Part shown: positions 2,577 through 61,992 of the stretch, one piece after another
How positions within the stretch are numbered: position 1 is the stretch's first letter
Layout: every line of letters starts with the position of its first letter
DNA from: a virus
DNA length: 64,000 nucleotides
Virus record (IMG/VR): IMGVR_UViG_3300035180_001820
Location: 3,268-67,267 of that record
Reading direction: 5' to 3' (one strand)
The notes under the pieces: generated by a model
The model's input: only the letters and a program-made list of their open reading frames with translations
Database searches by the model: none
Told to the model about the DNA's origin: nothing
Position numbers and translations under genes: made by a program

Positions 2577-4457
2577 TTAATTAACAATTGTACCAACAAT
2601 ATCATTGTCTGGTAATTTGACTTCAAAAATAGATGGGTCAAGTGCCGTATAAATTACACCATTTACATTTGCCTTTGACATTATATCTGGGTAATAGACA
2701 TTTGAATATGGTGAACCACCAATACTTGATTTATTTACTATCTCAATATCAACTATAGATCTTACACCTGGGATAACTGCTAATAGATTATAAATTTCAT
2801 GAATAATAATTGGTTGACCAATTGTCCATTTTGAAATATCAAAATAATCTTTTAATGCAGTAATACATTTTAATAGAACTTCCTTTTTATCAATAATATC
2901 ATCAAATATTGATACACTAAAATTAACACCTATATTAATAACATACGCATCTCTTATTTCTATAGTATCAGTAGCCATACGATATTCATCTAAGTATGTT
3001 TTTATATTACCTTTTATTAAATCTGATAATGGTACCAAATTGTTATTTTCATCATATCCTAAACAAAATGCACTCAATGAAGAAACTGATAATTTATTCA
3101 ATGTTTCATCAGGTGAATTTGTAGTTGCTATTAAGTTTGAATTATTAACAACTTTTACTTTTGCAACTGAACCATATTTAGGATGTAATGATAAAATTCT
3201 TATTTCATAATCAGGTGTAGTTACACAACGATTTTGTGTAGGATATGATGCAATTGCATTTTCCTTAATTTCATATAATGATTCAGGTCCTCTTCCACCA
3301 GTTGCGGCTGTTATATTGTTTACTGTTAATGTTGATTTAATATAATTAAATGTTTGTAAATCACTACCAATTAAATTAGCACCATTACTTATAAAATTAA
3401 CATTCTTTATCTTATTCAAACTATCAGCCGCAAAATTTGTATTTCCGGTGTAGCCTTTTAGATATCTAATTGTTAATGTAACATTACTTGGACTTAAACC
3501 ATAACTTCTATTTAATAGAAAATTTCTTGGGTCTATATTTTTATTAAATGTTGCGGTACCAATATATTTTGGGCTAGGTAATATATCAATATCTGATAAT
3601 TGTGTAACACCACTACCAAATTGTATCATTAATTTATTATCAACTAATCGTGATATAAATCTAGTATCTACATTTTTATAGTTTAATATATAAGGTGTAT
3701 TATGTTGCGCATGCGCATATCTTAAATCATTTTTTACAGGAATATCATCCACTATTTTATTATATGCTAAATATGGTACTTCATACCAAACTGTACCATC
3801 ACTACCTACAACATCAATAATTTCTAAAACATTATCATCAGGTATTGTTATAGTTAAAAACTTTTGAGCATTACCTACATCATAAGTATATGTTTCAATA
3901 CTACCCGATTTTCCAGCTATTGGTTTTTCTAATAAATAAAACAATACACTTCCATCATTACCTTTTGAATATTCCGATATTACAGTTCCATCTGTTAATG
4001 TATTTGAAAAATCAATTATACCATCATTAGGAATAAATGTCGTATCGCTACCATCTGCACCTATTTGTAAATCCGATAATATTAACGAATAATTCCAATC
4101 TGGTTTTTGAGGCATTTCTGTTGTAGCAGGTATTAATTGATATAACATAAATTGTGCATGTGATTGTGCACTTACTTTTGGTCTATATCCAAAAAGACTT
4201 TGTGCTTGATTTATAATATTAGTCCTATCGGTTGCCGAAAAGAATAATGATTCTGTAAATTTTACATTTTGATAAAATCCAGTTAAATCGGTTATATATG
4301 ATAATAATTCTACTATTATCATTTCAACTGATTCATTTGAAATTGATGTAAATTCATTTGGAAAATATACTTTAAGAAATTCAATTAATGCATTTCTAAC
4401 ATCTTCAAAATTTCTATTAATATATTTTACGTTTTTATTTATGTCTTTAGTTATCAT
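2577..4457 (-). CDS. Baseplate wedge subunit (T4 gp6 / baseplate J-like)
   Basis: 626 aa; YINRNFEDVRNAL, ELLSYITD...FY, GYRPK, IQFGSG, AATGGRGPESLYEIK, QNRCVTTPDYE motifs typical of gp6-like wedges. Confidence 0.85.
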   Translation of the reverse strand: MITKDINKNVKYINRNFEDVRNALIEFLKVYFPNEFTSISNESVEMIIVELLSYITDLTGFYQNVKFTESLFFSATDRTNIINQAQSLFGYRPKVSAQSHAQFMLYQLIPATTEMPQKPDWNYSLILSDLQIGADGSDTTFIPNDGIIDFSNTLTDGTVISEYSKGNDGSVLFYLLEKPIAGKSGSIETYTYDVGNAQKFLTITIPDDNVLEIIDVVGSDGTVWYEVPYLAYNKIVDDIPVKNDLRYAHAQHNTPYILNYKNVDTRFISRLVDNKLMIQFGSGVTQLSDIDILPSPKYIGTATFNKNIDPRNFLLNRSYGLSPSNVTLTIRYLKGYTGNTNFAADSLNKIKNVNFISNGANLIGSDLQTFNYIKSTLTVNNITAATGGRGPESLYEIKENAIASYPTQNRCVTTPDYEIRILSLHPKYGSVAKVKVVNNSNLIATTNSPDETLNKLSVSSLSAFCLGYDENNNLVPLSDLIKGNIKTYLDEYRMATDTIEIRDAYVINIGVNFSVSIFDDIIDKKEVLLKCITALKDYFDISKWTIGQPIIIHEIYNLLAVIPGVRSIVDIEIVNKSSIGGSPYSNVYYPDIMSKANVNGVIYTALDPSIFEVKLPDNDIVGTIVN

Positions 4458-4462
4458 ATACC

Positions 4463-4825
4463 TTAAACTTTAATTTTAACTACTGCTGATGTACCAAAAT
4501 ACATAAAGTTTATTGAAACTTGAGTATCATGATCCGTTATTTTTTCTATTGTAACATTAGTAACCGTTATTTCTGGAATGTAAGTCCGTAGGCTATCAAT
4601 AATATCTTTTTTTATTTTCTTATTGCTAGTTTCATCATTTTGTTCAAATAAATACTTTGTTAATGACATACCAGTAAGATTGAAATATCTTTCATTTTCT
4701 TCACATGAAAACAATATTCTTATTTTTGTTTTTATATGTTCAAGCGTTGTATAATTTAAACTAAAAGATCCATCTTTTTTTGATGGTTCTATAGGATATT
4801 TAATACTTAATGGGTTACTTATCAT
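4463..4825 (-). CDS. Baseplate gp25/GPW-like sheath initiator
   Basis: 120 aa; IKTKIRILF...ERYFNLTG.SL.KYLFE...YIPEI.V..V pattern; adjacent to gp6-like gene. Confidence 0.8.
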   Translation of the reverse strand: MISNPLSIKYPIEPSKKDGSFSLNYTTLEHIKTKIRILFSCEENERYFNLTGMSLTKYLFEQNDETSNKKIKKDIIDSLRTYIPEITVTNVTIEKITDHDTQVSINFMYFGTSAVVKIKV

Positions 4826-4828
4826 TTA

Positions 4829-5188
4829 TTAAATTTGACCTGAATAATCTTTGTTGAAAACATTATCTAAAAATGTACCATATTTTTTATCTGTTACTGA
4901 TATCGCATCTAATGCATTAGGAGCGGTATCACCTTCAGGAATATCATCTATAGTATTATTCATGATATCATTCAATACTGGATTCTTAAATTGTATTTTA
5001 GGGCGTTGTGATTCTTGTACTTTTTTTTGTTGTTTTTGACCAACTCTTGGAACGTTATTATTAATAAGTTTTAATACATCATCTTTATCATCAGAAAGAA
5101 TATTATTTTCTTCTAATTTCTTAAATGCTATTTCTAACTCTTGTCTAACAACAGTTCTTAGTATTTTTATAAATCTTGCTTCATCCAT
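4829..5188 (-). CDS. Hypothetical protein in structural block
   Basis: 119 aa ORF with AGGT-type RBS; no family recognised. Confidence 0.6.
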   Translation of the reverse strand: MDEARFIKILRTVVRQELEIAFKKLEENNILSDDKDDVLKLINNNVPRVGQKQQKKVQESQRPKIQFKNPVLNDIMNNTIDDIPEGDTAPNALDAISVTDKKYGTFLDNVFNKDYSGQI

Positions 5189-23033: not shown

Positions 23034-23349
23034 ATTCACTCCATACTAATATAGTATCATTTACTTTAAGTTTAGACCATTTTTCATAAGTCTCAATCAT
23101 AGGTTGAAATTTACCAGTTGAATCTTTTCCTAGCCATCTAAATTGTGTTGTATTTTCTAAAAATCCAATTTTAGTAAGTGTCCATTTTCCAACGACAACA
23201 TATGTTTCATAATACTTATAATGTGGTTTAGGTGTATGATCACATGATGTTAATAATATACTAAATAAAAATGCTAAAAATAATACTTTATACTTTTTCA
23301 TATTCTTCTCTATTAAATTTTGTTGCATATGGAATCCTAAGACTTCCAT
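23026..23349 (-). CDS. Putative lipoprotein (true start probably MKKYKVLF)
   Basis: MKKYKVLFLAFLFSILLTSC lipobox. Confidence 0.6.
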   Translation of the reverse strand: MEVLGFHMQQNLIEKNMKKYKVLFLAFLFSILLTSCDHTPKPHYKYYETYVVVGKWTLTKIGFLENTTQFRWLGKDSTGKFQPMIETYEKWSKLKVNDTILVWSEYE

Positions 23350-24385
23350 CAGGTGTATAATTTTGAAATTTAATTGTCACCGAATGTCCAATATAATCAT
23401 TTTTATTTTCAAGCAATTTCTTAAGAAAAGGCCAAGGACCAACAATATTTGATTTACATGTCTGACCATTTTTCAATTGTACTCGAATGTAACCTGCCAT
23501 ACCTGATTTATTACCTTCACCTTCAAGAATATCAAGAAGAATGAATTCATCATCCATAAAATCTTTTCTTTTTAAGAGATATTTGGATTTTTTGTTTTCA
23601 TAAAACCCATCCAATCTAATAATAGATCCTTCATATCCATCAGCGATAAATTGCTCATGCAATACATCAAGTTCTTCAAATGAGTTTGCAACATATGTAG
23701 GTACAAGTATCCAGTTTGCATAATTTATTTCCTTTACTAAATTGGTTAAGTATTTATATCTTTCGGAAAAAATCATATTAGGAATGTATATATCATATAC
23801 ATAAAAGAATAATGATTTATTAGTTTCGGCAAGTTCAGCTGCGGTAGGAGTTTGTTTTTTAGCAAGGCTCATGATTGCATCAAAGTCTGCTTTTAATTCA
23901 TGATTATAAAGTTCACCGTCAACAAACTTAACATTTGGATAATTTTTTACTTTATTTGAAAAGATATTAGGCCATTCATAAATATGTTTATCACCACGCG
24001 AACGTAATTCATCTGGACGATGAGCACAACGCATGCCATCAAGTTTAGGTTGGACAAAAACTGGAAAAGTAAGCTTCTTTTTATTATCAGCATAACCTTT
24101 AGCAGTCATAGGATCCATTTTTTCTTTTGAATCAACATGCTCAATAGTTGTTGAATAACCTCTACTTAATTTTTTTATGTGCATGGCTTCGGCTTCGGCT
24201 CGGGCTTGTGAAGCTCCAGTTGTTTCATTCGCTTTACCAACATTTTTTGGTTTACAAATTGTCCATTTTGAGGTAACCATCTTACCATTAAGTTTTCCAC
24301 TTATGGTTCTATATTTATTATCAACGACTTCAACTTCCCATGTTTGAATAGTACCCGTTGATGTTCTTTTATAAATAGTTATCAT
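23288..24385 (-). CDS. ATP-dependent DNA ligase
   Basis: QPKLDGMRC, VDGELY, FYVYDI, GYEGSIIR, LLKRK and an OB domain ending DGSLRIP. Confidence 0.93.
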   Translation of the reverse strand: MITIYKRTSTGTIQTWEVEVVDNKYRTISGKLNGKMVTSKWTICKPKNVGKANETTGASQARAEAEAMHIKKLSRGYSTTIEHVDSKEKMDPMTAKGYADNKKKLTFPVFVQPKLDGMRCAHRPDELRSRGDKHIYEWPNIFSNKVKNYPNVKFVDGELYNHELKADFDAIMSLAKKQTPTAAELAETNKSLFFYVYDIYIPNMIFSERYKYLTNLVKEINYANWILVPTYVANSFEELDVLHEQFIADGYEGSIIRLDGFYENKKSKYLLKRKDFMDDEFILLDILEGEGNKSGMAGYIRVQLKNGQTCKSNIVGPWPFLKKLLENKNDYIGHSVTIKFQNYTPDGSLRIPYATKFNREEYEKV

Positions 24386-24912
24386 TTTATTTCTCTTATT
24401 TTATTTAATTTTTTTTCTTCTAAACGAATTTTTTCAAAATTAGTTATAATTTTATTTGCATCATTAATATCATGAAAACCACAATCGGTGTTATAACATG
24501 CCTCTGCACTATAACCTTGATAAAATTTTCTATCTTTAGGAAAATACTTATAATCAATTTCATTCCAAATTAATTTATATTTTTTTCTAAAACATAATTT
24601 TTTCATATATTTAGTTTCAATATGATATAAACCATCATATCTAAAAACTCTATATTTATGAGTATCGGTGTCCATATATCGTATTATACTAAAATCAACA
24701 TCTAATTTCATTATATTAGAACCTAATGATTTAACCCAATTGTCTGCATTTTCCTCTGTAGAAAAATCCAAATTTTTGAATGGTTTCCATTGGCCATTTC
24801 TTATAGTATGTACCCAATATCTATCATTAAACTTAGTTATTTTGTATTTCATATAATCCAATAATTTTAATAATTAAATATAACTATAAATTTACTAAAT
24901 GTCAATTAAGAA

Positions 24913-25245
24913 TTAAATTATATTAAAACAACCATATTCACCAATTATACAGACTTTAATATTATGTAATTGTAACAATAAATCGGTTGAGATATCATCA
25001 CCTTCATTATCTGAGATATCTTCATTTATAAATAAATATTTATGGTTATCATCTAAATATTCTATCTTAAAAAATAACCTATTTATATTATAAAAATATT
25101 CTACATATTCGGTTATTATTTTCTTTTCTGATTTATTTGAATAATAATCTTGCAGCCTATCTGAGGCTGTATTGATATATTTATTAAAAACAATAAGTGG
25201 TAATAAAAATACTAATAGTATGTAAATTATCATCCATCTCGCCAT
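24913..25245 (-). CDS. Hypothetical membrane-anchored protein, last gene of the radical SAM unit
   Basis: Hydrophobic N-terminus; probable start at 25233 overlapping the upstream stop; ends just before the next promoter. Confidence 0.55.
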   Translation of the reverse strand: MARWMIIYILLVFLLPLIVFNKYINTASDRLQDYYSNKSEKKIITEYVEYFYNINRLFFKIEYLDDNHKYLFINEDISDNEGDDISTDLLLQLHNIKVCIIGEYGCFNII

Positions 25246-25541
25246 GCATATTCATGAGTACCTAATTTATAATTTGTTAACTCAGGAAATTCTGTTTTTA
25301 TTAATGTAGCTACACGTTCTTTAAACTGTGCACCTGTTTCATCATCTTTAACATTATCCCATGATAAACCAATATATAACTCATCACAATATTCGGGTGA
25401 ATGTGTTTCTAATTTTACAGCCTGTTCACCATATTCAAAAAGATCCATACCTTCAGGTATATCCGAACTCTCAACAGTTATTCCAAAAATTAAAAATGAA
25501 CTTGTAGAGCTATTACTAACGAACCCTTGTCTTATTTTCAA
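25230..25541 (-). CDS. GFVSNSS-motif protein, paralog 3
   Basis: TTG start at 25541 overlapping the upstream TGA gives (M)KIRQGFVSNSSTSSFLIFG; shares KDDETGAQ(F/Y)K with paralog 2. Confidence 0.8.
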   Translation of the reverse strand: MKIRQGFVSNSSTSSFLIFGITVESSDIPEGMDLFEYGEQAVKLETHSPEYCDELYIGLSWDNVKDDETGAQFKERVATLIKTEFPELTNYKLGTHEYAWRDG

Positions 25542-25873
25542 TTGTATTCTTCTCCACAATAATGTTCAAAGCGAGCTTTACTTTCATCATAGAATGGTAA
25601 TGCCGTTTTAATCATACTTAATATACGTGCTTTATATTGTGCACCTGTTTCATCATCTTTCATTGAGTCTGGGTCGACACCTAATATTGCACCATACTCT
25701 GTCTCAGATCTATATGATAAACCTAAATTATCAAAATACTCTTCATAATCTTCATCATGTTTATCTTCAAAATCAGTAGGAAGATATTTTGATACATCTT
25801 CACGAAGTATAATTCCGAATAAACAAAATGAACTTGTAGAACTGTTACTAACGAACCCTTGTCTGATTTTCAT
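25538..25873 (-). CDS. GFVSNSS-motif protein, paralog 2
   Basis: MKIRQGFVSNSSTSSFCLFG; AGGAG RBS. Confidence 0.85.
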   Translation of the reverse strand: MKIRQGFVSNSSTSSFCLFGIILREDVSKYLPTDFEDKHDEDYEEYFDNLGLSYRSETEYGAILGVDPDSMKDDETGAQYKARILSMIKTALPFYDESKARFEHYCGEEYN

Positions 25874-25884
25874 ATCAGTACTCC

Positions 25885-26376
25885 TTAATGTTTACTTAAT
25901 CTAATGTGAGGAATTTTATTGAATATTCCACCGTGCTCCATAGTTCCTGTGTAGGAATTATCATCACCATATTCTACAATAAAAAACTCACAATCTTTAT
26001 TTTCATTAACAAATTCAGTTGCAACTTGTGTTGCATAAATATTAGATGCCTTTTCGTATGCATCCCAATCAATTTTATCAGTACCTTTTATTTCATATTG
26101 ATGATAATCAGGAGCTCCTGTTAACCAACCGTTAGTAAGCTCTTTTGAAATTTCATCAATAGATGCCGATTTCTGTTTTTCAATATCCATAAATATTGTT
26201 TCGGCAAAGCCTATTGTTTGATATTCTTCACCAGTATCTGGCCATGAATATTTCTTTATGGTATTACTATCAAATAATATTGATTTAATTTCTTGTGGTG
26301 ATTTTGGTTTTCTTTTAAATGCTATAATAAAACTTGATGTTGAACTATTGCTTACAAAACCTTGACGTACTTTCAT
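25885..26376 (-). CDS. GFVSNSS-motif protein, paralog 1
   Basis: MKVRQGFVSNSSTSSFIIAF; remainder not obviously similar to paralogs 2 and 3. Confidence 0.85.
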   Translation of the reverse strand: MKVRQGFVSNSSTSSFIIAFKRKPKSPQEIKSILFDSNTIKKYSWPDTGEEYQTIGFAETIFMDIEKQKSASIDEISKELTNGWLTGAPDYHQYEIKGTDKIDWDAYEKASNIYATQVATEFVNENKDCEFFIVEYGDDNSYTGTMEHGGIFNKIPHIRLSKH

Positions 26377-27023
26377 ATTACATCCATTTCATTGTTTACT
26401 TCTTTTAATACGGCATCTTGACCATATTTATTTTTTAATCTTTCAAACCAATCTGCCGTTTTTGCTTTAACCATCCAAACTCGTTTATCAACTCGTTTTG
26501 TTTCATGTAGTCCTTTACAGATTACACCCTCAACCAATCCAAATTTATTATCATGAACATCCTTTACAAAGGACTTATTTAGATTTCCTTCATATACAAC
26601 TCTTGGTATACCTATATTAGAAAACTTTTTAATAAACTTACGAGGCTCTACCCATCCTCTTTGATGCTGCCAAATATCAAACATTGTTATATCTTTAACA
26701 TCATTAGGATCATGTAAACCAAATGCAGAGTTCGGTCCATAAAATTCTGAAAATACTATAAAGTTTTTAATATTTCTATAATCTTTATCAGTCTTAAATA
26801 TTTCAGTTAATGGTTCTGCATATTTTTTCATGAACAAAATTATAGCTTCACCAAATACATCGGCCTTTTCATTTATAATTTGATTACGAGTTCCAAATTT
26901 ATAAAATCCTAATTTGTATGACCATTCGCATCTAATATTTGAACCGTCCATTTTATCAAATGCAACTATTGGTGCACCAATAGTTCCGTGCTTCCAATAT
27001 TCTATGTGATGATATTCTTTCAT
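26373..27023 (-). CDS. RNA ligase-like nucleotidyltransferase (Rnl2-type adenylation domain only)
   Basis: Motifs I (DKMDGSN), III (FSEFYG), IIIa (FDI), IV (EGVICK), V (VKAK). Confidence 0.78.
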   Translation of the reverse strand: MKEYHHIEYWKHGTIGAPIVAFDKMDGSNIRCEWSYKLGFYKFGTRNQIINEKADVFGEAIILFMKKYAEPLTEIFKTDKDYRNIKNFIVFSEFYGPNSAFGLHDPNDVKDITMFDIWQHQRGWVEPRKFIKKFSNIGIPRVVYEGNLNKSFVKDVHDNKFGLVEGVICKGLHETKRVDKRVWMVKAKTADWFERLKNKYGQDAVLKEVNNEMDVI

Positions 27024-27034
27024 TATTTACCTTA

Positions 27035-28063
27035 TTAAATTGTATAAACTGGACATGCTTTAGAACAATCCCTACATCCTAAAACATCTTTTCTAAATGC
27101 ATATGTTCTAGAACTATGCCATACTTCATCCATAGATTTTGCATCTAATAAACTAATACCATTTTTCCAACCTTCAGTTCCTTCAATAAAAGAACATGGA
27201 AAAAATTCACCTTCAACATTTACATAACTTGAAAATAGTGTACTTTCACAAGGTTCAATAAATGTTGAAAATTGTTTATTTATATCTGCTTTAAATGCCT
27301 TTTGTGCTGAACATGAATCAAAACCAATGTTAACATTTTTTTGTAATGCAGTTTGAAATAATATACCAAATGATTCTTCACTAATACTATTATATCTTTT
27401 AACGGCTCTACCTTTTGATTTCAAAGATAAAAATACAATGGCATTTAACTTTTCTAATCTAGAATCGGTTTTTACTTTATCTAATAAACTCATAGCAATA
27501 TCATATGTTTCTTTAGATAACATAAAATGAATATTACATTGTGTTAAACCAAGATCCGTTAATTTTTTAATAGTATCCAATGTTTTATTTTCATCATAAA
27601 AAGATACTGCAATTGCTCCGCATCTTTGAACTAACTTATTAGCAATTTCATCAGTAATTCCTTCACCATTTATTGTAAGATTGGGTGTAATTCCATTTAA
27701 GATACAAAAATCAAAAATATCCCACATATCAGGATTAGAATCAATATCACCAATACCAAAAGCTATTTGTGTTAATGTTCTATTGAATTTATAAAATACT
27801 TTTTTGAATGTTTCTAATGTCATGTAGGTACCATTAGGTGTGTTTGCTTTATAACAAAATTTACATGGTCCTATACCATCTACACCTTTACATGTAGTTG
27901 AAATTTCTATATCAGCAATCTCAGGTCCATATTTAGACCATTGTGGATCTTCTTCTTTTGTTTTTCCCCATCTAGCAAAATAACCAGTTTTTTTATCAAA
28001 TACATAGTTATAATCTGTACTTGAAAAAATCTTTTTGTCTTTATTTTCTAATAATTTTGCCAT
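27035..28063 (-). CDS. Radical SAM enzyme with SPASM/twitch domain
   Basis: CKGVDGIGPCKFCY (CX8CX2C), PNLTING, C-terminal PCES...G.FFPCSF...CRDCSKACP. Confidence 0.88.
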   Translation of the reverse strand: MAKLLENKDKKIFSSTDYNYVFDKKTGYFARWGKTKEEDPQWSKYGPEIADIEISTTCKGVDGIGPCKFCYKANTPNGTYMTLETFKKVFYKFNRTLTQIAFGIGDIDSNPDMWDIFDFCILNGITPNLTINGEGITDEIANKLVQRCGAIAVSFYDENKTLDTIKKLTDLGLTQCNIHFMLSKETYDIAMSLLDKVKTDSRLEKLNAIVFLSLKSKGRAVKRYNSISEESFGILFQTALQKNVNIGFDSCSAQKAFKADINKQFSTFIEPCESTLFSSYVNVEGEFFPCSFIEGTEGWKNGISLLDAKSMDEVWHSSRTYAFRKDVLGCRDCSKACPVYTI

Positions 28064-28131
28064 TGTAACCTATTTATTTTAATTTTTTATAATATAAATA
28101 TAACCATTTATTTACTAAATGTCAATTGAGA

Positions 28132-29192: not shown

Positions 29193-30116
29193 TTATACTA
29201 TCCACTCTTGACCTTGTTTAACCATACCTGCGAACCCATCATCTTTTACCATTTTGAACCAATCACAAGGTTGTCCATAAAAATCAAATCCTTCGGTAAC
29301 ATAATCTTGATAGTGATCTAAAAACATTTTTTCTTTAATATCATCACTCAATCTTATTGCATTTACATTTTCATAACCTTTAAGTTCACCATAATTTGCA
29401 TGAACTTTAGATGAAAAATTCATTATTTTTTTAACGGTATCAACACCATCACATTCACAATCTTGGAAGATGATATCTGATTCCTTATAAAAAATTTCAG
29501 ATTGGCGAGGTGAACAATGTTGACTATCTGTAACAAAATATACTGTCTTATGACCTTCTTTTTTAAAGAGTAAACCAAATGTAGGACTTGTTATACTACC
29601 TGTCATAATATGAATTTGTTGAATCAAAGATACGGTCCAACCTTGCCAAATAAAGTTTTGATTTTCTTTAATTGGATATAATGTAAAAAATGATTTTAAT
29701 GTTGCAGGTTGTCCTTCAATTGATTCTAATCCACCTCTCCAACTCTTCTTCCATAAATCTTTAAGTAACTTTCTGTTACAAATAAGATTAGGTACATAAT
29801 CGGAGTTTGTTCTTATGATAGGTGTTTCTTCAATTGGCATTTCACTTCTCATTGCAACTTCAGGTTTATTATACCAATCATATCTCTTAAATGCAACAAA
29901 CTCAATTGATGCATGATCCGCATGTGCGTGACTAATATAAATATCATCAATTGACTTGATAGGAATATTATATTTATGAAGCATTAGAGGTAGTGCCCAG
30001 CCAGTATCTATTAATAGGTTTCGTGTTTCACCTTCATGCTCTTCGGTTAATAAAAAACTATTATTACCATTTAATATTGAGAATGCATTGCCATATCCAA
30101 TTGATTTAATTTTCAT
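29193..30116 (-). CDS. MBL-fold hydrolase, Apyc1-like (anti-Pycsar cyclic-nucleotide phosphodiesterase family)
   Basis: G.G.AFS, NNS, LLID.G, SID.IYISHAHADH, LW..S..GGL, IFQDC, VHA...EL, MFL.HY.D, QG in the order recalled for Apyc1. Confidence 0.72.
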   Translation of the reverse strand: MKIKSIGYGNAFSILNGNNSFLLTEEHEGETRNLLIDTGWALPLMLHKYNIPIKSIDDIYISHAHADHASIEFVAFKRYDWYNKPEVAMRSEMPIEETPIIRTNSDYVPNLICNRKLLKDLWKKSWRGGLESIEGQPATLKSFFTLYPIKENQNFIWQGWTVSLIQQIHIMTGSITSPTFGLLFKKEGHKTVYFVTDSQHCSPRQSEIFYKESDIIFQDCECDGVDTVKKIMNFSSKVHANYGELKGYENVNAIRLSDDIKEKMFLDHYQDYVTEGFDFYGQPCDWFKMVKDDGFAGMVKQGQEWIV

Positions 30117-37409: not shown

Positions 37410-38520
37410 TTATTCTTCATCATTATCTCCACATATATTCCAATCATAATCAATTACATTTATAGTAGCTTCATGTGTAAAATTTATTTTTGAATTTTCA
37501 TATGAAACTTTTGGAGTATTAAACATTTCAGATATTTTTATCATATGATATAACTGAATTGTAATATCTTCAGATACTATAACGTAAATTACAGTGTGAT
37601 CTCTATAGATATGTAAAAATGCGGTACCGAAAAGTTCTTTAAGTTTTTCGGTATAAATCTCAACAAATTTAGTTGATGTCATATACAACATTTCTATCAA
37701 TATCAAGTACTGTGACTATGACATTGGTTCCATAAATAGTACTATCACTATAATCACCTACAGTAATATTTGTACTTTTCAATAATGCAGATAGTAATGT
37801 TAAATCAATTAACTCAATATCATGAACAGGATCTAAATCAATTATACAAAAAATACCAGATGCTTGTGTTTCTATAAAACTAACATTATGAATAATATCT
37901 TTACCAAAAATATCAAATATTTTTCCAACTAATGTTGTTGTTTTATTACCATAAATCTCATTCATTATTTTGAGTCCAATAATTTATCAAAAAAATCACA
38001 ATCAATTTGCATCTCAAAATATTCATCTTGACCATCATTGAATACTATTATTCTAATACTCTTTGCATCAAAATACTTTTCGATGTTTTTTAATTGTTCT
38101 AAATATATTCCACTATCAGGTGAAATTTTTACAGTAACTGCAAATGGATGAATATCAATATCAAGGACTTGTTTATCATACCACAAGTCCTTAACATATT
38201 TTTCCATTTCAATAAAAATAGGATTATCAATAACCATCTAAAATAGATCCTTTCTTTTGGAAAACATCGGTCTTTATTGTTACAAGTAAAAAATTAACAT
38301 CCATATCGGTTAATATTGAGACCGATATTTGTGATGGTTGAATCAACTCAAACATAAATGATAATTCATAAAGTTGGCTAACGGTTAATACCGTGTTACC
38401 TTGAAATAAAATTTCAGTTACATTTTCTTCAATTTCATCAACCTTTATAGCTACATATGATAATGCAAATGATCTTTGTAACATCCTATCGGCTTTTCTT
38501 AATTTTTTAGCATCTAACAT
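37410..38520 (-). CDS. Tandem block of four ~90-98 aa diverged paralogs (37410..37706, 37669..37965, 37965..38237, 38227..38520)
   Basis: Similar length and shared pattern I.L..L..(I/L)S..F....I.(I/V). Confidence 0.6.
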
Positions 38521-39644
38521 TATTTACTCGAATTTTTTAATAGAAATTTATTTGATACTGCTTTAAATGAAAACCTAGTACCTTTATTATAAACATTAAA
38601 TACTAAACCTTCTCGGTCAACTTGACTGTTTAACATACTTTTACCATCAGCCATTGCAATGAAATATTGAACTGCATTATCACGACTAGTAGGTGAAAAA
38701 TAAATAAGCCCATTTGCCACAATCCTAACAAAAGGAACGGTATGTATTGAATCGAATTTTTTAGATTCGTCGGTTTGTTTATAGTAACCTGTAATATTAC
38801 TTATGAAAGATAAATCCATATCATAAGGTTGTTTATCGTAAACGGTCCCATCAGTAATTAACATTATTCTAAAAACAAAAAACTGATGCTCTGTTAATTT
38901 ATAATGATTATCTTGAATGTTTGGACCTACGATTTCACCTTGAAACACAACCGCAATTGTACCTAAACTTTTTGCTTGTTCTGATTCCATAAAACATTTG
39001 AAAACATTTTCTATGTCATATTTTCTAGCAATTTCCCAATGCTTATTACCTTCAGTATCTTTCAATTGAAGATTCCTTGAACAAACACCAAATCCTTCAT
39101 CTTTATGATAAAAGAAAGTTGCAGATGTACCATCAAGCTTTTCAGTAATAAGAATTAATGCTTCACTTAAACCTGAGCATGCTCTATCAATCTTTATAGC
39201 AATTGCTGGAATATTTTGAACTCTCTCTTCATCGGTCTTTGGAATCCATGAAGGAAAATTACCTTTAGCCATTCCTTGAAGACATGCTGGAATTTTCGGT
39301 TCATATTTAAGAATGTCATACCATTCTGTCATATCTGAACCTTCAACAAATTCACATGCATCATTCTTAGGTGCAGGTATAATCAAACCTTGACTAATTT
39401 GTCCCCTAAGTTTAATGGTCTTAAGACGATACCTTTCACTAGTTTCATCTTTGAATAGAAACTCAAATTCAGGACGCCTTGGTAATAGACTATCAATTTC
39501 AAAATATACAATCAGCTCCCCTACTGAATGTAATCCCTTTTTAACAACAACGGCCCATCCTCCTACCATAGCAACTTCAATTGCATCTGCGTTCTCTATT
39601 GGTAGAATCTCTGTAATTTTTTTAATACTTGCTAATTGTCTCAT
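38520..39644 (-). CDS. RNA ligase, DRB0094/Rnl5 family
   Basis: N-terminal RQLASI..I..I.PIENADAIE, LRGQISQGL, FPSWIPKTDEERVQN, TEKLDGTS, QGEIVGP.IQ.N, REGLV, SFKAVSNKFLL. Confidence 0.92.
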   Translation of the reverse strand: MRQLASIKKITEILPIENADAIEVAMVGGWAVVVKKGLHSVGELIVYFEIDSLLPRRPEFEFLFKDETSERYRLKTIKLRGQISQGLIIPAPKNDACEFVEGSDMTEWYDILKYEPKIPACLQGMAKGNFPSWIPKTDEERVQNIPAIAIKIDRACSGLSEALILITEKLDGTSATFFYHKDEGFGVCSRNLQLKDTEGNKHWEIARKYDIENVFKCFMESEQAKSLGTIAVVFQGEIVGPNIQDNHYKLTEHQFFVFRIMLITDGTVYDKQPYDMDLSFISNITGYYKQTDESKKFDSIHTVPFVRIVANGLIYFSPTSRDNAVQYFIAMADGKSMLNSQVDREGLVFNVYNKGTRFSFKAVSNKFLLKNSSK

Positions 39645-50766: not shown

Positions 50767-53586
50767 TTAAATTTTTACTTTCTTTGACTTTGTCATTCTA
50801 TTTCTAAGTTCAGTTGTCAATACACCAAAATTATTGTATGTTGAAATAACATTCTTCTCACCATATACAGTTGAGAATTGTAAAGGTGCATCTCCAATCA
50901 TAAGACAGATTGTTTCAATTCCAACATGCTGTAATTTAGTAAGCGATGTTTTAATATGTTCATATGCAGCTTCTCCGTTATACATCATTCTACCAACTTG
51001 TGTATAAGGACCACCATCACAGATGTTTAAGAAGTATGATTCTTTTCCACGACCATTAGCAATTATTTCTTTTGAGATGGCGTCATAGCAAAGGCTTTCA
51101 GGGGTGCAACCTGCAGGTATAAGATATTTCCAATTGTTAACTGCTGAAGATAATTTATTTTTATTTGAATCATAAATTACATAAAGGTTAGTCATATATT
51201 CTTTACCCATATCAGTTTCACCTCTTACATCGATAACAACGTGAGTATGAGTTTGTTCGTATGTTGATGCAATGATTGCTGCAATCTGTAATGATTTTTT
51301 GAATCTTGTCATATACATACGTTCTTCACCTCTGAAGATATTGTTATCGCTCATTGAACCGCTACCATCAATTGAAATATGTACATATGATTTATTATAT
51401 GCGGTTTCAATATGCTCTAAGAAAATTTTACGATTTCCAAATGATGCAAACTCTGACAGTAACTCTTCATCAATATCACCAGTATCTTTTCTTAAAGATT
51501 CCTCAATAGTGATATCATTTCTGAATGCCATCTTACTTGCATACATCTTACCGATTTGTATTGCTTGTTTATAAAGTATAACATCTTCTTCATTAGGATA
51601 TCTTGTGACGTTACCAGTTGTATTAATATCTAAAGCTTTAGAATTATTTATAAGTGATTCTAAATCTCTATAAACAATTGAAGGAATAACTTTATTATTA
51701 AATGTAGTTGACTGGACCGATCCGCTATTGATAACGGTGTTAATAACACTTGCATCATTCTTTGACTCAAATTTTTGTTTTTTGAATCCATTGCTTAATG
51801 CATCAACTAATTCATCTGAATATGTATCTCTTAAATCAGAATCGGCTGATGAATTTGATTCTCTTTCATTGGCTTCATTAATAGCATCAATTTCATCTTC
51901 GGAAATTTCATCTGATGTATCTTTAGTATGAGTATATTCTTCATCTTCAGAATCTACGTTACCAAAGTCACCTTTAAGAGTTGATTCTGAATCATCATGT
52001 TCAAGTTCAGGACTGTCTTCATCAGATTCATTATCTTCAGAATCAGGTTTGGTTTTATTGGTTGTACCTTCAGCATCAGAATCTTCAGCTTCATTAGCAT
52101 CTGCTTTTGAACCATCATCTTCATCTTTAGAATCTTCAGTTTTTTCGGCTTTTTCTTTAGGTGATTTTTCTGATTTTTCTTTTGATTCTGATTCGCCTTT
52201 ACTATCACCAGTTTCTGATTCTTTAGTATCATCACCATTTTTATCAGGTACCGATGGTGTAGGTACAGATCTCTTAATAGGCATTTGCTTATTTTGAAAA
52301 ACCAATTCCTGAACTACTTCAAAAACTTTAAGTGTTTTTTCAAAAGCAGCAACCATTGAATCTTTTGTAATATTATCTAAGTCAATAATTTTTGAAATTT
52401 CTTTTAATCCGATTAATGCATTTGCATTAAAATATTTTGTATGAATCATCATAATATGAGACATATAATTTGAAAAAGATTCCGTTCTTTTTTCAGGTAA
52501 AAGTAAAGCAGCTCCTCTTTCAGGATAATCAAAATATCTTTTATTTATTGCGTCATAATAAGGAACATACCCAGTTGCATCCGCTTTAGTTAATGCATCA
52601 ATTCTTCTATCTTCAATATAATTGAATAATGGAAAAATGAAATTACTAAATAGTGTAGTTGAATTAACTCTTGCTTTTGAATTGGAGTTAACTTTTAATG
52701 CATATACATTATACATCTCAATAAATTTTAATGTCTGATATAATCCTGTCATAATTGACTTAGTGATATCATACATATTAGGATCTGTTTTTCGTTGACC
52801 CAACTTCTGCATAACATCTCTTAATGAACGTATTATGTTTGTTTTGAAGTCTCCGCGGTCAAAAGAATAAATTTCATTGAAACAACCTGCTGCATCCAAT
52901 TTATTAAAAATATTAATAGGTAATATATGATAGAAAAAACTATCAGAATCATTTATACCTAGATTCCAACCTTTAGGTTGATTTAATGTTGATTCCAAAA
53001 CATCTGATAAAATCTCATTATATTTTTCATAAGAAACAAATGGAACAATAGTTCCAAATTGCGAAAATTTTGAACCTAAATACATTGTGTTGTAAGTTAA
53101 TCCATTAACCATATCTCTAACAGCAGTAAGTGCATACATATCAGTGTACACAATATGTGAAGCTTCATGTAAAGCCAAACCAATGTTAATGTCAAAGTTG
53201 GAAATGTCAGTTGAGAGGATAATAAATTCACCATCTGTTGCACTATCAGGACCTGCATATTTTACAGGTATATTCTTTTTAGTAAGAATGCTGATAAAAT
53301 TTTTAGCAACTGTAGCAAACTCATAATATTTTGAGATTGTGCGTTCTTTTTCAGAACCTGCATTTAATGCACGGTTCGATATCATCATTTGCTTAACATT
53401 TTCATCAAGCCAAAATGATGATGCCGGTGAGTTTTCAATTTGTTTTGTAAGTTCGGATTCAATACCCTTAATGACCTGTTTAGTAACCTTTGTAACTTTA
53501 GTTGTTTTACCTAAAGTTGACGGAGTCGATGATCCTGATGATCTTCTTCCACCTGATCTGCGATGTCTGCTTCTTGGATATGCCAT
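50767..53586 (-). CDS. vWA-domain protein (CobT-like) with HExxH segment and acidic linker
   Basis: ALHEASH, FNYIEDRRID, long D/E/S/K linker, MIDAS IDGSGSM, TPE, ICDGGP. Confidence 0.85.
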   Translation of the reverse strand: MAYPRSRHRRSGGRRSSGSSTPSTLGKTTKVTKVTKQVIKGIESELTKQIENSPASSFWLDENVKQMMISNRALNAGSEKERTISKYYEFATVAKNFISILTKKNIPVKYAGPDSATDGEFIILSTDISNFDINIGLALHEASHIVYTDMYALTAVRDMVNGLTYNTMYLGSKFSQFGTIVPFVSYEKYNEILSDVLESTLNQPKGWNLGINDSDSFFYHILPINIFNKLDAAGCFNEIYSFDRGDFKTNIIRSLRDVMQKLGQRKTDPNMYDITKSIMTGLYQTLKFIEMYNVYALKVNSNSKARVNSTTLFSNFIFPLFNYIEDRRIDALTKADATGYVPYYDAINKRYFDYPERGAALLLPEKRTESFSNYMSHIMMIHTKYFNANALIGLKEISKIIDLDNITKDSMVAAFEKTLKVFEVVQELVFQNKQMPIKRSVPTPSVPDKNGDDTKESETGDSKGESESKEKSEKSPKEKAEKTEDSKDEDDGSKADANEAEDSDAEGTTNKTKPDSEDNESDEDSPELEHDDSESTLKGDFGNVDSEDEEYTHTKDTSDEISEDEIDAINEANERESNSSADSDLRDTYSDELVDALSNGFKKQKFESKNDASVINTVINSGSVQSTTFNNKVIPSIVYRDLESLINNSKALDINTTGNVTRYPNEEDVILYKQAIQIGKMYASKMAFRNDITIEESLRKDTGDIDEELLSEFASFGNRKIFLEHIETAYNKSYVHISIDGSGSMSDNNIFRGEERMYMTRFKKSLQIAAIIASTYEQTHTHVVIDVRGETDMGKEYMTNLYVIYDSNKNKLSSAVNNWKYLIPAGCTPESLCYDAISKEIIANGRGKESYFLNICDGGPYTQVGRMMYNGEAAYEHIKTSLTKLQHVGIETICLMIGDAPLQFSTVYGEKNVISTYNNFGVLTTELRNRMTKSKKVKI

Positions 53587-58300: not shown

Positions 58301-59684
58301 ATACCATTTTCATATGTACTTAACCATCCTCTAACTTTTTCAATTGTTAACTTATCATCAGATATAAAATAACTAGATAATTTCTTATCCATTCTTTTTT
58401 CCAGTCTTTACATATTTTACAAAATATACCGAAGGATTAACATTATCCAAAAACGATACCCAATTACCATCAAGATCATTATGAAAATCTCTCCGCAACA
58501 ACTCACCATCAGGAGTCAAAAGCCAATCATCGGCTGTAGTAACATCCGTTACTTTTCCATCATAAGGTGATATTTTATAAACTTTAAATTTCAACATAAT
58601 TAATAATTTCTTAAAATTTTAACAAACTTGTATGACCTGAATAACTAAACGTTTCTGGAAACTTAATTTTTGGTTCAGGTCCAAAAAGAGTTTTTGGATA
58701 AACATAAACCGCAATTCTCTCTCCAATAAACCAAGGAACATCAATTGAATATTTTCTCTTAATTGTTTTGAACAATTTAACTCTATCGGAATGTCTGCCT
58801 TTTAGCACAACTTTTGCATTCTTTCCATTAAGTCTTTTGAACTCAGAAATGAATCTTCGACCTTCTGCATTATTTTCAACTATTGCAGTAGATGCAACAT
58901 TTTTAGCTGTAATATTAACAAACATTTTTTATTCCTTAATTAAAATTGATATACAAATATAACTATAATTTCTTAGACTGTCAATGGAGTTTGAGATTAA
59001 TCTTTCTCAATTTTACCACATAAAATACACCGATATGTATCTTTTTTACAACCATTATCTGTCCAAATATGACTGCATATTTTAATAGGTTTATTCGTCA
59101 TATCCCAAACACCATTAAAACTAATAGCAAATCTGCCAATGGTACCTTTTACCGAACTTTTATCCGAAGTAATCATTTCTAGTTGTTTTGCCGTTAATTT
59201 CATTTTTGTTATCCGTAATTAATAAATTTGATATACAAATATATCTATAAAAACATGGATTGTCAATGGAGTTTAGAAATTAATTTCTACTATCTTATTT
59301 TAATGTATTTTAAGACTTCAAAGTTACTAGCATAAAACGATGTATTTTAAGCTATTACTTATATCGTCTTTAAATGATGTTAAATAGCTTCCGAATAGAT
59401 AACCACAGAACACACATAATAACACTTACTAGACCCTTCTAACAAGACGATTACCGAGGCCTATAAATGCTTATAAATAATTAAACCATATAAACATTAA
59501 GTATACTAGTTTGACTCCCACTAGACTCATCTAACAAGCCGCCACATACTTGCTAGTGGAAAAAATTACAGTCCGGAGTATTTTACTAGTTTGTCAATAA
59601 TTGAATATATGACCATATAGAATTATCATAGTTTATTTTTTATACTCCCAATTTGATTTAAAGTCATATTGATTTATTTTTATA

Positions 59685-59811
59685 CTTAAAGATGCTTCTA
59701 TAATGTCCGGTAGAAATGCGGACTAATCCAATCTAAGTTATTTTATTTTTTTATATTTCTTAAAGATGCTTCTATAGAAGAAAAATAGTGTCCGGTAGAA
59801 ATGCGGACTAA
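59685..59811. repeat. Two-copy direct repeat containing a hairpin
   Basis: CTTAAAGATGCTTCTATA...TGTCCGGTAGAAATGCGGACTAA at 59685-59726 and 59759-59811. Confidence 0.9.
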
Positions 59812-59899
59812 AGTAAGCCATTCTCACATTACACACTTCCTAACCCCAAGTAACTAGGCATAACCTTAGCATCTATTAATGTGTACACTTATTTCTTAT

Positions 59900-61870
59900 G
59901 GGACTGAGATTATGGTAGGTAGTAACTACATACTACAAAGGACCACCAACAAATGTCAGCAGTCCTTTGAGCTAGCTAGCTATACAGCAAAAGCATCTAA
60001 TACTAAATGATCAGTAAAGTATGTCGATGCTTCCACTTTTGACGCGATTTTGAATAGACCATCGCTTACGGTCTCCTTTCCAACAAGTATGGATTGCTCC
60101 TCCTACTATCAGTATACTTGATAGTTAGTAGAGCTTCTTAACGTATAGCATCCTACGACATCCTATATTTAAAGCCTAGTATATGCAATTAAGGCACGCA
60201 GACAGTATACTTATTCAAGGTATACTAAATCGGCTACTGTTTAACGGCGGCAGTTTGCCGAGTACTTTTCTGAGTTAACTGTACATTAGTATTAATCTAA
60301 TCTGTCACGTTATAGATATCGTCAGCACAATATACCATATGCAGGTGGTTGTTACTCAATTTAGTAACCAGCAGCTACTGTAACGTCGATAGCGGCACGT
60401 GATACTCACTTTAGTATCCATCGGTATTTTGTAATGACAAAATTGACTAAAAACATCCTATACCTGTAGTCGATAGAAGAACTATAACTATATATCAGTT
60501 ATCAATATTATATTTACATATACTTAAATATACAAACAATCCTACATAAGATTATGGATGTAGTGCCATAGCCATGATTATTGAGTATAGACGACTCAAC
60601 ATAAGTTTTCGCGCTATGCCACGTACAAAGTGTTTATAGACTCTAAGTAAAAGTCTCCTAACCAGTTAATTATAATCCGTCCATGATCTGCACATGGCCT
60701 TCTGAGTTTCTGCTCAGCGGTTCTACTCCTAAACCTACGTGGTAATCACTTAATTAGTGTTTGATCTAAATATAATTTATATGTGGTACCACCCCACAAT
60801 TATGCACCGCTAAATGCAAACGTATATTTACTATAAATTGATATTAAGAATTACTTTAGATACAATTGGTGCATTTAACATTCGAGCCATTCATAACAAT
60901 GGAGCAACAAATAACGAGTACTTGTATATCTATCTAAAGATTTTGAGGTGATCAGCTGTATTCCTTGCGGCAGCTCAAAAAGAATATTTCTAACCTCTGT
61001 TATTACCGAGGTACCCGTCGGTTATTATATTCAATTGTGATTGAAGTGGGAATTGAACCCACAGTTATCATGCACCAAAGTAAATTTGTTTGTGAGACGT
61101 GCAAGCTAAGGTCAATTACGATTTAAGGTTGTAATCTTCTAGACTCAATCAACTATCATTGGTTATTTTGACATGCAATGATAAGGCATGTGTTCCTAGC
61201 AAGACTTACTAGTGAGTAAAAGTGTTTATAATGGTCAACTTTCAATCGACCTTTGTACTATATCTTTTATATTCGATATAGTATCTCATTCTCTAATATA
61301 ATATAAATTTAATCATTAATAATATTTTACCTACGCTACGTCATTTTGATTCTCCTATCTTACTATATATTTCTTATTTCTAGATTTAATAAATAATCAG
61401 TAATACCAATGTTTATATCTTTACTGCATCTATACGTGATGGATTCAATTTATAAATCATTAATAACCGAATTGAATTTTTATAAAATAGTGGCAGATCA
61501 TTTATCTGTTGCTCGAGGCAGAAATGTTTTAGACTGCCTTAATTAATAGAACCCTTAAATCCATTTCCAGACCGCAGTCCTATAGTCAGTAGGAATTTCT
61601 ATTAAAATTATATCCGTATATGTTATGGCCAAACGGACTGGATTAATAATATTGTATATATGATAGACCAACAATATCTCCAAAAAATAGGTAACATATA
61701 TTTACTGATTGCTATTTCGTCTAAGCATATACACCATGTTACGGGCTTTACCCTTAGACAATATAGTCATTATTACCAAAAAAGCAAACTTAATCAATTT
61801 CCGACTTTCACGGACATATCTGCTGCGCAGTGCATTGTCGTTTTATGCTAGATGATTAAGTTTTTCAATG
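59900..61870 (-). ncRNA. Candidate large structured non-coding RNA or ncRNA array
   Basis: No credible ORF over ~2.7 kb; more than 30 stems seen by eye, several enclosing multibranch domains; minus-strand G.U-rich stems, GNRA and T-loop-like loops. Strand and boundaries tentative. Confidence 0.6.
61035..61150 (-). ncRNA. Oversized tRNA-like element
   Basis: GATTGAG/TTCAATC acceptor-like stem, U8, T-arm GTGGG-TTCAATT-CCCAC directly adjacent, ends A-CAA; no canonical D or anticodon arm. Confidence 0.45.
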
Positions 61871-61909
61871 AACAAATTTATTATAAATATAACCTGTAAT
61901 TTGTATTTA

Positions 61910-61945
61910 ATAACCCACCCATTACTTTTTTAATAAGTGGGTTAT
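61910..61945 (-). terminator. Hairpin, probable terminator of the 61993 gene
   Basis: ATAACCCAC...GTGGGTTAT inverted repeat. Confidence 0.55.
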
Positions 61946-61992
61946 CTCCAACTTACATCCTTTGCATATTCGATTGTATCATCGAGTATGTT

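Follow-up and report, generated by a model that had tools for sequence, protein, structure and literature searches.

The results of this study point to an undescribed protein-modification system in a virus, in which a radical S-adenosylmethionine (SAM) enzyme is paired with proteins that share a serine-rich N-terminus of 16 residues, referred to below as the tag. The pair lies in a stretch of 64,000 nucleotides (positions 3,268 to 67,267 of the IMG/VR record IMGVR_UViG_3300035180_001820; hereafter the window), and it recurs in many large phages and in bacteria, there in part within defence islands. The module consists of a dedicated radical SAM enzyme and a large family of small, mostly acidic tag proteins, the tag being their only universal feature. 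The analysis shows the anatomy of one transcription unit, the genomic coupling of the two families, selection on the tag at the amino-acid level and the fold class of the enzyme, whereas the substrate role of the tag, the chemistry and the role of the tag proteins are inferred. As regards function, we lean towards the reading in which the enzyme modifies the tag. No paper on the tag or on the enzyme-tag pairing was found in the literature searched, which left most subscription journals outside, and earlier work may exist.

The unit runs from 28125 to 24913 on the minus strand and is of early type, with six genes between two sigma-70-like sites. The radical SAM enzyme (27035..28063, 342 amino acids) was identified with Pfam, with phrog_7293 (E 1.8e-83) and by its AlphaFold2 (AF2) model. 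Three tag proteins are encoded further downstream on the same strand, namely protein A (25885..26376, 163 amino acids; phrog_7397, E 7.5e-9), the acidic protein B (25538..25873, 111 amino acids) and its paralog, protein C (25230..25541), the last two belonging to a body family with the pattern YIGxSW...DDETGxQFK...AWxDG. In translation, the 16-codon tags read MKVRQGFVSNSSTSSF in protein A (26329..26376), MKIRQGFVSNSSTSSF in protein B (25826..25873) and (M)KIRQGFVSNSSTSSF in protein C (25494..25541), all on the minus strand. All open reading frames (ORFs) of the original prediction, which had been made from the sequence alone, were found in their places on the minus strand, with one correction: protein C in fact begins at the TTG at 25541, in overlap with the stop codon of protein B, and has 103 amino acids. 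That prediction had also described three adjacent ORFs with a near-invariant serine-rich N-terminus, of which only the second and third would be alike downstream. Both statements proved right, since the first 16 residues (MK[IV]RQGFVSNSSTSSF) are identical in A, B and C except for V or I at position 3, and B and C share 45% identity over the whole protein, while A differs from both and shares only the tag with them at the level of BLAST. No further copy of the motif is present elsewhere in the 67,267-base contig behind the window.

A scan of IMG/VR with the protein A family yielded 64 loci, mostly on contigs of 50 to 550 kb. These contain 283 tag ORFs, 230 of them unique, in same-strand arrays of 1 to 14 genes. 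The consensus of the tag is M-K-x-R-x-G-F-V-S-N-S-S-[ST]-[STA]-S-F. M1, K2, R4 and G6, which were unconstrained by the search pattern, are each present in 224 to 229 of the 230 unique proteins, and F7 is present in 228, V/I8 in 229 and S9 in 228 of them, the pattern having limited positions 7 to 9 to 4 to 6 residues each. Among 17 relatives of protein A, the N-terminus was invariant and the identity of the body fell to 31–51%. When all fetched viral loci were considered, a start codon stood at tag position 1 in 351 of 355 distinct genes; the same 16-residue start in so many distinct genes is not due to chance. Each serine position uses both AGY and TCN codons and the arginine uses both AGR and CGN, with a third-position identity of 0.49. 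This mixture of synonymous codon families indicates that selection acts on the peptide and not on a nucleic-acid element, and a repeat at the DNA or RNA level, considered as an explanation of the tag, was thus ruled out. With a 36-position profile of the tag region as the query, 24,451 of 1.84 billion cluster representatives had E values of 0.001 or lower, and most of the 150 best matches began at residue 1. In four complete genomes, 3, 6, 8 and 15 tag genes were counted; the reversed pattern, used as a control, gave 0.

Two further explanations of the tag were rejected. The fingerprint of glycyl radical enzymes is R-x-x-G-Y, whereas the tag reads R-x-G-F and the enzyme is not of the activase type. 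Autoprocessing of the pyruvoyl or N-terminal nucleophile kind was without a supporting fold. As a separate observation, six database proteins (P0020, P0022, P0023, P0024, P0027 and P0029) contain two full tagged units joined in one reading frame, and the second tag still starts with M-K. Real fusions, merged gene calls or stop codons reassigned in the phages concerned may account for them.

The coupling between the enzyme and the tag was evaluated from both sides. Of the 64 tag-anchored loci, 39 have the enzyme within 6 kb. With 29 aligned enzymes as the query, 205 relatives were found in IMG/VR, from which 80 loci were kept, and 72 of these 80 enzyme-anchored loci contain tag genes (1 to 13) within 10 kb; these locus counts include near-duplicate loci, and the two sets share some contigs. 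All 272 tag genes of the enzyme-anchored loci are on the strand of the enzyme. Of ten contigs with tag genes and no adjacent enzyme, five carry the enzyme elsewhere, and the five without it are 8–88% complete. Likewise, two of five enzyme contigs without adjacent tags carry tags elsewhere, and the other three are 14–70% complete. When the co-oriented ORFs of the 80 loci were clustered, the enzyme was present in 80 and the tag superfamily in 74, and the next family reached only 14. The module is therefore a two-part one, and the 80 loci have neither a protease nor an exporter nor a separate recognition protein in common. Agreement at tag positions 3 and 5 was higher within loci than between loci (0.56 versus 0.39 and 0.33 versus 0.17, respectively), also for diverged bodies. 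This may hint at a shared genome-specific partner, although common descent could also explain it.

The pair is not confined to phages. A DNA pattern of the tag matched 111 stretches in 185,579 species genomes, many of them on viral-looking contigs of metagenome-assembled genomes, and the enzyme was also present in 39 of 110 such loci, with flanks of at most 2 kb. In 14 of the 110, a STAND NTPase gene stands beside the tag gene and the enzyme in one shared operon. The hosts of these operons are Veillonella parvula, Acetatifactor, Lachnobacterium bovis, other Bacillota, Verrucomicrobiota, Sulfuricurvum and Terriglobales. The full order, read in four fetched 19-kb regions (L258:4424-11125, L259:4436-11207, L260:8118-13711 and L261:8988-14998), is a metallo-beta-lactamase (MBL)-fold nuclease, an Avs2-like STAND NTPase, a protein of about 140 amino acids, a tag protein of 137 amino acids and the enzyme; the nuclease gene is present in three of the four regions and absent from the Sulfuricurvum operon. 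The tag of all four operons is MKIR[NKT]GFVTNSSSTSF. PADLOC matched the NTPases to Avs2 (E 1e-11 to 3e-27) and the nucleases to the Avs1a/LmuA-like MBL nuclease (E 1e-36 to 1e-62). The NTPases are 845 to 984 amino acids long, and two of the four showed weak trypsin-like matches at the N-terminus. SIR2-HerA, a type IV restriction enzyme and a GajB-like helicase are located near the operon in two of the four regions. The combination of a STAND NTPase and an effector domain in one operon that characterises Avs-type systems is thus found in the bacterial relatives but not in the window, where a PHROGs scan of 58 ORFs showed no Avs-type gene. Neither the tag protein nor the enzyme is represented by a model in PADLOC v2.0.0, which returned weak pVip matches only. 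A further group of Bacillota carries bare two-gene cassettes of enzyme and tag protein. In one Bacillota locus (L180:2001-3524), a tag protein of 507 amino acids (MKYRVGFVTNSSSSSF...) directly follows the enzyme; the phage forms of the set analysed have at most 279 amino acids.

A quick maximum-likelihood tree of 73 enzymes, unrooted and with 45 of the 89 viral rows sampled at random, separated 17 cellular from 56 viral-type enzymes on branches with SH-aLRT support of 100. Since the pair recurs in bacteria in two other settings, it behaves as a self-contained functional unit. The data also show the pair to be under strong selection. The co-occurrence of motif proteins with this radical SAM clade, which had been proposed as a check on the original prediction, was thus observed in phages in both directions and in bacterial operons too, supporting the conclusion that the two form a functional pair.

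Cultured phages carry the pair as well. The enzyme was found in 172 records at about 41–43% identity, mostly in T4-like phages of Klebsiella, Enterobacter, Cronobacter, Citrobacter and Escherichia. In Escherichia phage Lw1, whose host is given as E. coli BL21(DE3), the enzyme is gp161, and gp111 and gp116 are tag proteins, gp116 being a member of the protein A family. These products are annotated as hypothetical or as 'putative radical SAM protein'. Searches with blastn of the region and tblastn of protein A gave no match to cultured phages.

The enzyme passed the Pfam cut-off for Radical_SAM (PF04055) marginally (29.7 bits versus 29.5) and that for SPASM narrowly (22.7 versus 21.5). Both the three-cysteine motif and the fold of the radical SAM superfamily are present, and the enzyme is thus a member of it. 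The cluster cysteines C58, C67 and C70 do not vary among 29 aligned relatives. The non-canonical CX8CX2C on which the original prediction had remarked is indeed present in the window enzyme, but it is not a trait of the family. The first cluster loop is 3 to 20 residues long across the 29 enzymes, many of which have the canonical CX3CX2C; since loop length varies in the family, CX8CX2C is a local variant. The proposal of a SPASM/twitch tail likewise held in part. The only further cysteines invariant in the 29 aligned sequences are C251, C272, C290 and C337, which suffice for one auxiliary cluster, so that the tail is twitch-like; the full seven-cysteine SPASM motif for two auxiliary clusters is absent from the family.

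The AF2 model of the enzyme is confident (pLDDT 92.5). Comparison with solved folds placed it among SkfB, SuiB, CteB, TigE, viperin, anSMEcpe, BlsE, BtrN, PqqE and EpeE. SkfB (6efn) was the best match (E 8.7e-10, TM 0.64), and the matches to SkfB, SuiB, anSMEcpe and viperin had E values of 1e-7 to 1e-9. Profile matches in the Protein Data Bank (PDB) were near E 1e-3 only, to the twitch tail of BtrN (E 9e-4) and the core of SkfB (E 1.3e-3). Residues 1–32 were modelled as a small beta domain with four strands and no helix, containing the conserved stretch Y-N-[YF]-x-F-D-x-x-x-G-F-F-x-R-W-G, which is not of the fold of the recognition element (RRE) of ribosomally synthesised, post-translationally modified peptides (RiPPs). 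The N-terminus of the enzyme could be a novel recognition domain. The enzyme family comprises 2,825 clusters at E 1e-20 or better, which bear generic names only, and phrog_7293, like the protein A family phrog_7397, is listed as of unknown function.

Several phages have a split radical SAM gene. In L050 it consists of 2637-3182 and 4204-5175, and the second piece starts with an intein-like end (...LLVHN|CYKGN) located inside the cluster motif CxxC|YK; L008, L020 and L023 have split genes too. In Cronobacter phage vB_CsaM_leB, the enzyme match falls in two pieces under two annotated radical SAM coding sequences. This suggests that inteins or homing elements target the conserved cluster-binding codons of the enzyme gene.

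The bodies of the tag proteins are diverse. The tag proteins have a median length of 133 amino acids (range 42–279), and the body carries a net charge of −0.09 per residue. The bodies of 232 proteins fell into 81 BLASTP clusters; none of 38 representatives reached the Pfam threshold. For the tag proteins, no match was above threshold in NCBIfam or PADLOC, a PDB profile search gave nothing below E 0.28, and Atlas similarity searches returned unnamed viral clusters only. The body of protein A has a conserved D64, the motifs E-Y-[SG]-D-x-D-G and MEHGG, and a C-terminal [RK]-[VIL]-S-[NK]-H. Its AF2 model has a pLDDT of 89, and no PDB match to the fold was obtained (best E 0.74 with Foldseek; best Z 3.9 with VIA wide). 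Residues 1–10 are the only low-confidence part (below 50), and the first strand spans residues 13–20. Since the first ten residues are of low confidence and the strand starts only at residue 13, the model suggests that the tag forms a free overhang, which could enter an active site. In an hhalign comparison, the C-terminal 'Q-F-K ... A-W-x-D-G' of B and C was matched by the helix, the strand and the turn 'S-D-N-D-G' found in the A family (probability 98.9). Judging from these alignments, the body families may have a small common core consisting of the tag strand, a helix, a strand and the D-G turn.

Based on these results, the function of the module is proposed to be as described below. The enzyme would bind the free, flexible N-terminus of each tagged protein, and hydrogen abstraction would alter a residue within the G-F-V-S-N-S-S-S-S-S-F stretch, a substrate role that the original prediction had raised alongside autoprocessing. 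This modification would turn each tagged product into its mature form, and one enzyme per genome would thereby serve 3 to 15 diversified proteins. By analogy with known enzymes, two kinds of chemistry are plausible: oxidation of a serine side chain, as in anSME or in BtrN-type dehydrogenation, or a side-chain cross-link in F-V-S (Phe7-Ser9), as in the formers of Phe-x-Ser cyclophanes. That the tag is the site of modification is made likely by its free and flexible N-terminal position, by its small hydroxyl residues flanked by two aromatic residues, by the fold class of the enzyme, which is that of peptide and protein modifiers, by the presence of a single enzyme for many proteins and by the lack of any other conserved partner gene. 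Because the promoters are of early type and the bodies diversify rapidly, we infer that the matured tag proteins would act as host-takeover or anti-defence effectors. On this evidence, modification of the tag by the enzyme appears somewhat better than an even prospect.

Several observations weigh against this proposal. A contig of 250 kb, estimated to be 88% complete, has a tag gene but no enzyme. In phage Lw1, gp111 and gp116 are encoded about 20 kb from gp161, although on the same strand, and adjacency of enzyme and tag genes is therefore not obligatory. No PqqD-type RRE domain was detected in the enzyme with Pfam or in its AF2 model, and the NCBIfam models of known maturases scored far below their cut-offs, the best being those for W cofactor maturase, MftC, NirJ2 and ScmE (15–20 bits versus cut-offs of 265–500). 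The (C/S)-x-P-x-R motif of anSME substrates is absent from the tag consensus. In the AF2 model of protein A, moreover, the tag's second half forms the first beta strand of the core; since the tag runs into this strand and the core seems to be shared, its conservation may be partly structural. Finally, the genomic coupling fits a docking or adaptor role equally well.

The tag could accordingly be a docking handle that attaches proteins to the enzyme, for example onto the N-terminal beta domain, and is itself left unmodified. The bodies would then be adaptors or regulators which, like F-box proteins, recruit varied targets (host proteins or nucleic acids) for the enzyme, or turn it on or off. 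All coupling data given above apply here to the same degree. Docking would suit the presence of one enzyme versus 3 to 15 diversified tag proteins in each complete genome, the strongly conserved extra N-terminal beta domain of non-RRE type, the acidic, fast-diverging bodies, which resemble binding modules, and the bacterial operon, in which one tag protein and the enzyme are located downstream of a sensor NTPase. However, six invariant small polar residues would make an unusual docking surface, and a strictly free, flexible N-terminus is better suited to threading into an active site. We know of no adaptor-directed radical SAM enzyme. Docking without modification is the main alternative, though an unlikely one.

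The structural evidence allows another explanation, in which the tag and the conserved D-G turn form a ligand- or metal-binding site or an oligomerisation strand, and the enzyme is linked to it indirectly, for example by making the bound small molecule or cofactor. This is suggested by the position of the second half of the tag in the core and by the hhalign pairing of the 'E-Y-S-D-N-D-G' strand-turn of A with the 'A-W-x-D-G' of B and C at the probability given above. The C-termini of the tag proteins are enriched in G (36/230) and H (31/230), preceded by N or D, which hints at a shared site, and the D, E and H residues that are invariant in the A family look like those of an enzyme. The radical SAM enzyme itself also has nucleotide modifiers of the viperin type among its structural neighbours. 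On the other hand, residues 1–10, the most invariant part of the tag, are unplaced in the AF2 fold, no fold or family match points to a binding site, and the C-terminal trend is seen in under half of the proteins. The closest folds of the enzyme are, besides, modifiers of peptides and proteins. A binding site thus seems a little less probable than docking.

The internal proteins of phage T4 are diversified small proteins with one shared N-terminal decapeptide starting with M-K, and the prohead protease cleaves at L/I-x-E. The tag could therefore be a virion-targeting or processing signal by which tagged proteins are packaged and injected. The window does come from a T4-like myovirus, with matches to baseplate wedge and RNase H, and the locus resembles an internal-protein locus in that fast-diverging small proteins share one short N-terminus starting with M-K. 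Unlike the T4 capsid targeting sequence, however, positions 1–16 of the tag contain no Glu and hence no protease site, the tag is coupled to a radical SAM enzyme, and it occurs in bacterial operons as well. The unit is of early type and lies away from the baseplate genes of the window, and neither the coupling to the enzyme nor the bacterial operons and cassettes with the same pair would be explained. We consider this role improbable.

A tie to RNA repair, raised in the original prediction, fared worst: although a ligase-like gene sits between the enzyme and protein A in the window and 14 of the 80 loci have an Rnl2-type ligase within 10 kb of the enzyme, the window ligase has no relatives in either the 64 tag-anchored or the 80 enzyme-anchored loci, 66 of the 80 are without an Rnl2-cluster ligase nearby, the remaining genes that recur near the enzyme are early genes usual in T4-like phages (metallophosphoesterase in 12, dUTPase in 9 and NUDIX in 8 of the 80) and the bacterial versions have no ligase, so that a unit of enzyme, ligase and tag proteins for RNA repair or modification is highly improbable. 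The RNA ligase is outside the conserved module. The gene in question (26373..27023, minus strand) encodes an RNA-ligase-like nucleotidyltransferase of 216 amino acids, matched by PF09414 (41.7 bits versus a cut-off of 27; E 1.8e-10) and phrog_548, with K-M-D-G as motif I and no C-terminal domain. The phage has three ligase-type genes in all, the others being an Rnl1-type RNA ligase at 38520-39644 (phrog_968, E 2.6e-76) and the gene at 23288-24385, an ATP-dependent DNA ligase (phrog_114). The neighbouring genes of the window recur in none of the 64 tag-anchored loci, and its DNA ligase was found in one of them.

Modification of the tag by the enzyme is thus the reading we retain. The pair occurs in phages, including cultured coliphages, and beside an Avs-like sensor in bacterial defence islands, and is thereby linked to phage-host conflict. 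In a wider and more tentative view, which we regard as possible although it may well not hold, the enzyme and the 16-residue tag would form a general protein-arming platform on both sides of this conflict: large phages would mature or aim 3 to 15 fast-evolving early effectors per genome with it, and in bacteria the pair, connected downstream of an Avs-like STAND sensor, would serve as the defence output. Were this the case, the tag-protein clusters, about 24,000 in number, would represent a hidden reservoir of radical-modified effectors, or of adaptors directing radical chemistry. Should the enzyme indeed modify the tag, this would mean a common maturation step, and a handle for study, for thousands of early proteins now called "hypothetical" in T4-like and jumbo phages, and whole proteins would be the substrates of a new radical SAM reaction. 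Since the tag is a simple sequence signature, the family can easily be recognised in annotation, where it is nameless today.

The other features of the window are those of a T4-like phage. The GC content is 25–36%, and 115 of the 122 ATG-started ORFs of at least 70 amino acids lie on the minus strand. The PHROG matches include baseplate wedge, RNase H, thymidylate synthase, peptide deformylase, DNA ligase and Rnl1-type RNA ligase. The DNA of the window is contained in four sequencing runs, labelled as microbial mat and sediment metagenomes, and no RNA run was listed among them. The two promoter-like sites proposed in the original prediction, both on the minus strand, are located at 28097..28125, 5' of the unit, and at 24877..24905, where the next unit begins and this one ends. 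Each is of the sigma-70 type and reads TTGACA-17-TATATT with 11 of 12 consensus positions, and they are the best two matches between 24300 and 28600; as this region has 29 sites and shuffled sequences had a mean of 36.7, both are to be read as consensus matches only. The last gene of the unit (24913..25245, minus strand) is an ORF for a small membrane protein of 110 amino acids with a hydrophobic N-terminus and an acidic tail, for which no family was above threshold in Pfam, PHROGs or NCBIfam and no relative occurs in the sets of 64 and 80 loci.

About 1.1 kb upstream of the unit, at 29193-30116, the window encodes an MBL-fold hydrolase (phrog_392). MBL nucleases also belong to the bacterial module, and the proximity of the phrog_392 hydrolase in the window may be a coincidence. 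A stretch of about 2.8 kb (59203-61993) has no ORF of at least 70 amino acids on either strand, in a phage genome that is otherwise densely coded, and neither a tRNA nor an Rfam match at E up to 0.01 was detected in it. The longest ORF of the window (50767-53586, 939 amino acids) has no PHROG match at E up to 1e-5.

Among known systems, the anaerobic sulfatase-maturing enzymes (anSME; AtsB and anSMEcpe) are one of the closest. According to PMC10114670, anSME oxidises a serine or cysteine side chain via abstraction of a C-beta hydrogen. Like the window enzyme, it is a radical SAM enzyme with a C-terminal Fe-S domain, it acts on a short motif of a folded protein and not on a free peptide, and anSMEcpe is among the structural neighbours. 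In contrast to the four invariant extra cysteines of the window family, anSME has two auxiliary clusters, and it serves sulfatases, whereas the window enzyme goes with dozens of unrelated small tagged proteins. No NCBIfam model of anSME matched the enzyme at E up to 0.1. SkfB and BtrN are twitch-domain radical SAM enzymes, SkfB being the best fold match and the two together the only PDB profile matches, and they too have a single auxiliary cluster. However, their sequence identity to the enzyme is 12–16%, SkfB links Cys to Met by a thioether within a short peptide, the compound that BtrN oxidises is an aminocyclitol, and neither has a Ser-rich protein tag as its partner.

The clusters for RiPPs, such as those of SuiB, CteB, PqqE and EpeE, resemble the module in that the maturase adjoins genes with a shared recognition sequence, and their enzymes are of the same fold class. 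They differ in the partners, which here are proteins of 80–280 amino acids with predicted folds. The short leader and core of a RiPP-type precursor are not seen in the tag proteins, since residues 1–16 are conserved and are not a removed leader, and the module has no conserved RRE domain, protease or exporter. Protein-sized substrates have a precedent, since a 2026 paper reports thioether cross-links made by a SPASM enzyme in whole proteins (PMC13692751).

The nearest concept is that of the FxSxx-COOH/FxsB systems. Kaur et al. 2020 (PMC7159879) describe conflict systems in which FxSxx-COOH peptides occur together with a radical SAM/SPASM enzyme and with a STAND NTPase, and FxsB is counted among the cyclophane formers in PMC10114670. 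Two likenesses are apparent. A radical SAM/SPASM enzyme is accompanied by variable proteins sharing F-x-S, which corresponds to F7-V8-S9 of the window tag, and a STAND NTPase belongs to the context, as the bacterial relatives of the tag adjoin an Avs2-like STAND NTPase. In those systems, the FxSxx motif lies at the very C-terminal end, and a metalloprotease releases it, whereas the tag is at the extreme N-terminus, with F-x-S at residues 7–9. The phage module has no conserved protease gene and forms arrays of 1–14 genes per locus, and no NCBIfam match of the enzyme to FxsB was obtained at E up to 0.1. The two systems therefore differ in the position of the motif, in processing and in enzyme family. 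Taken together, these comparisons place the pair among radical SAM maturases with a motif-bearing partner, with unusual features and a wide distribution.

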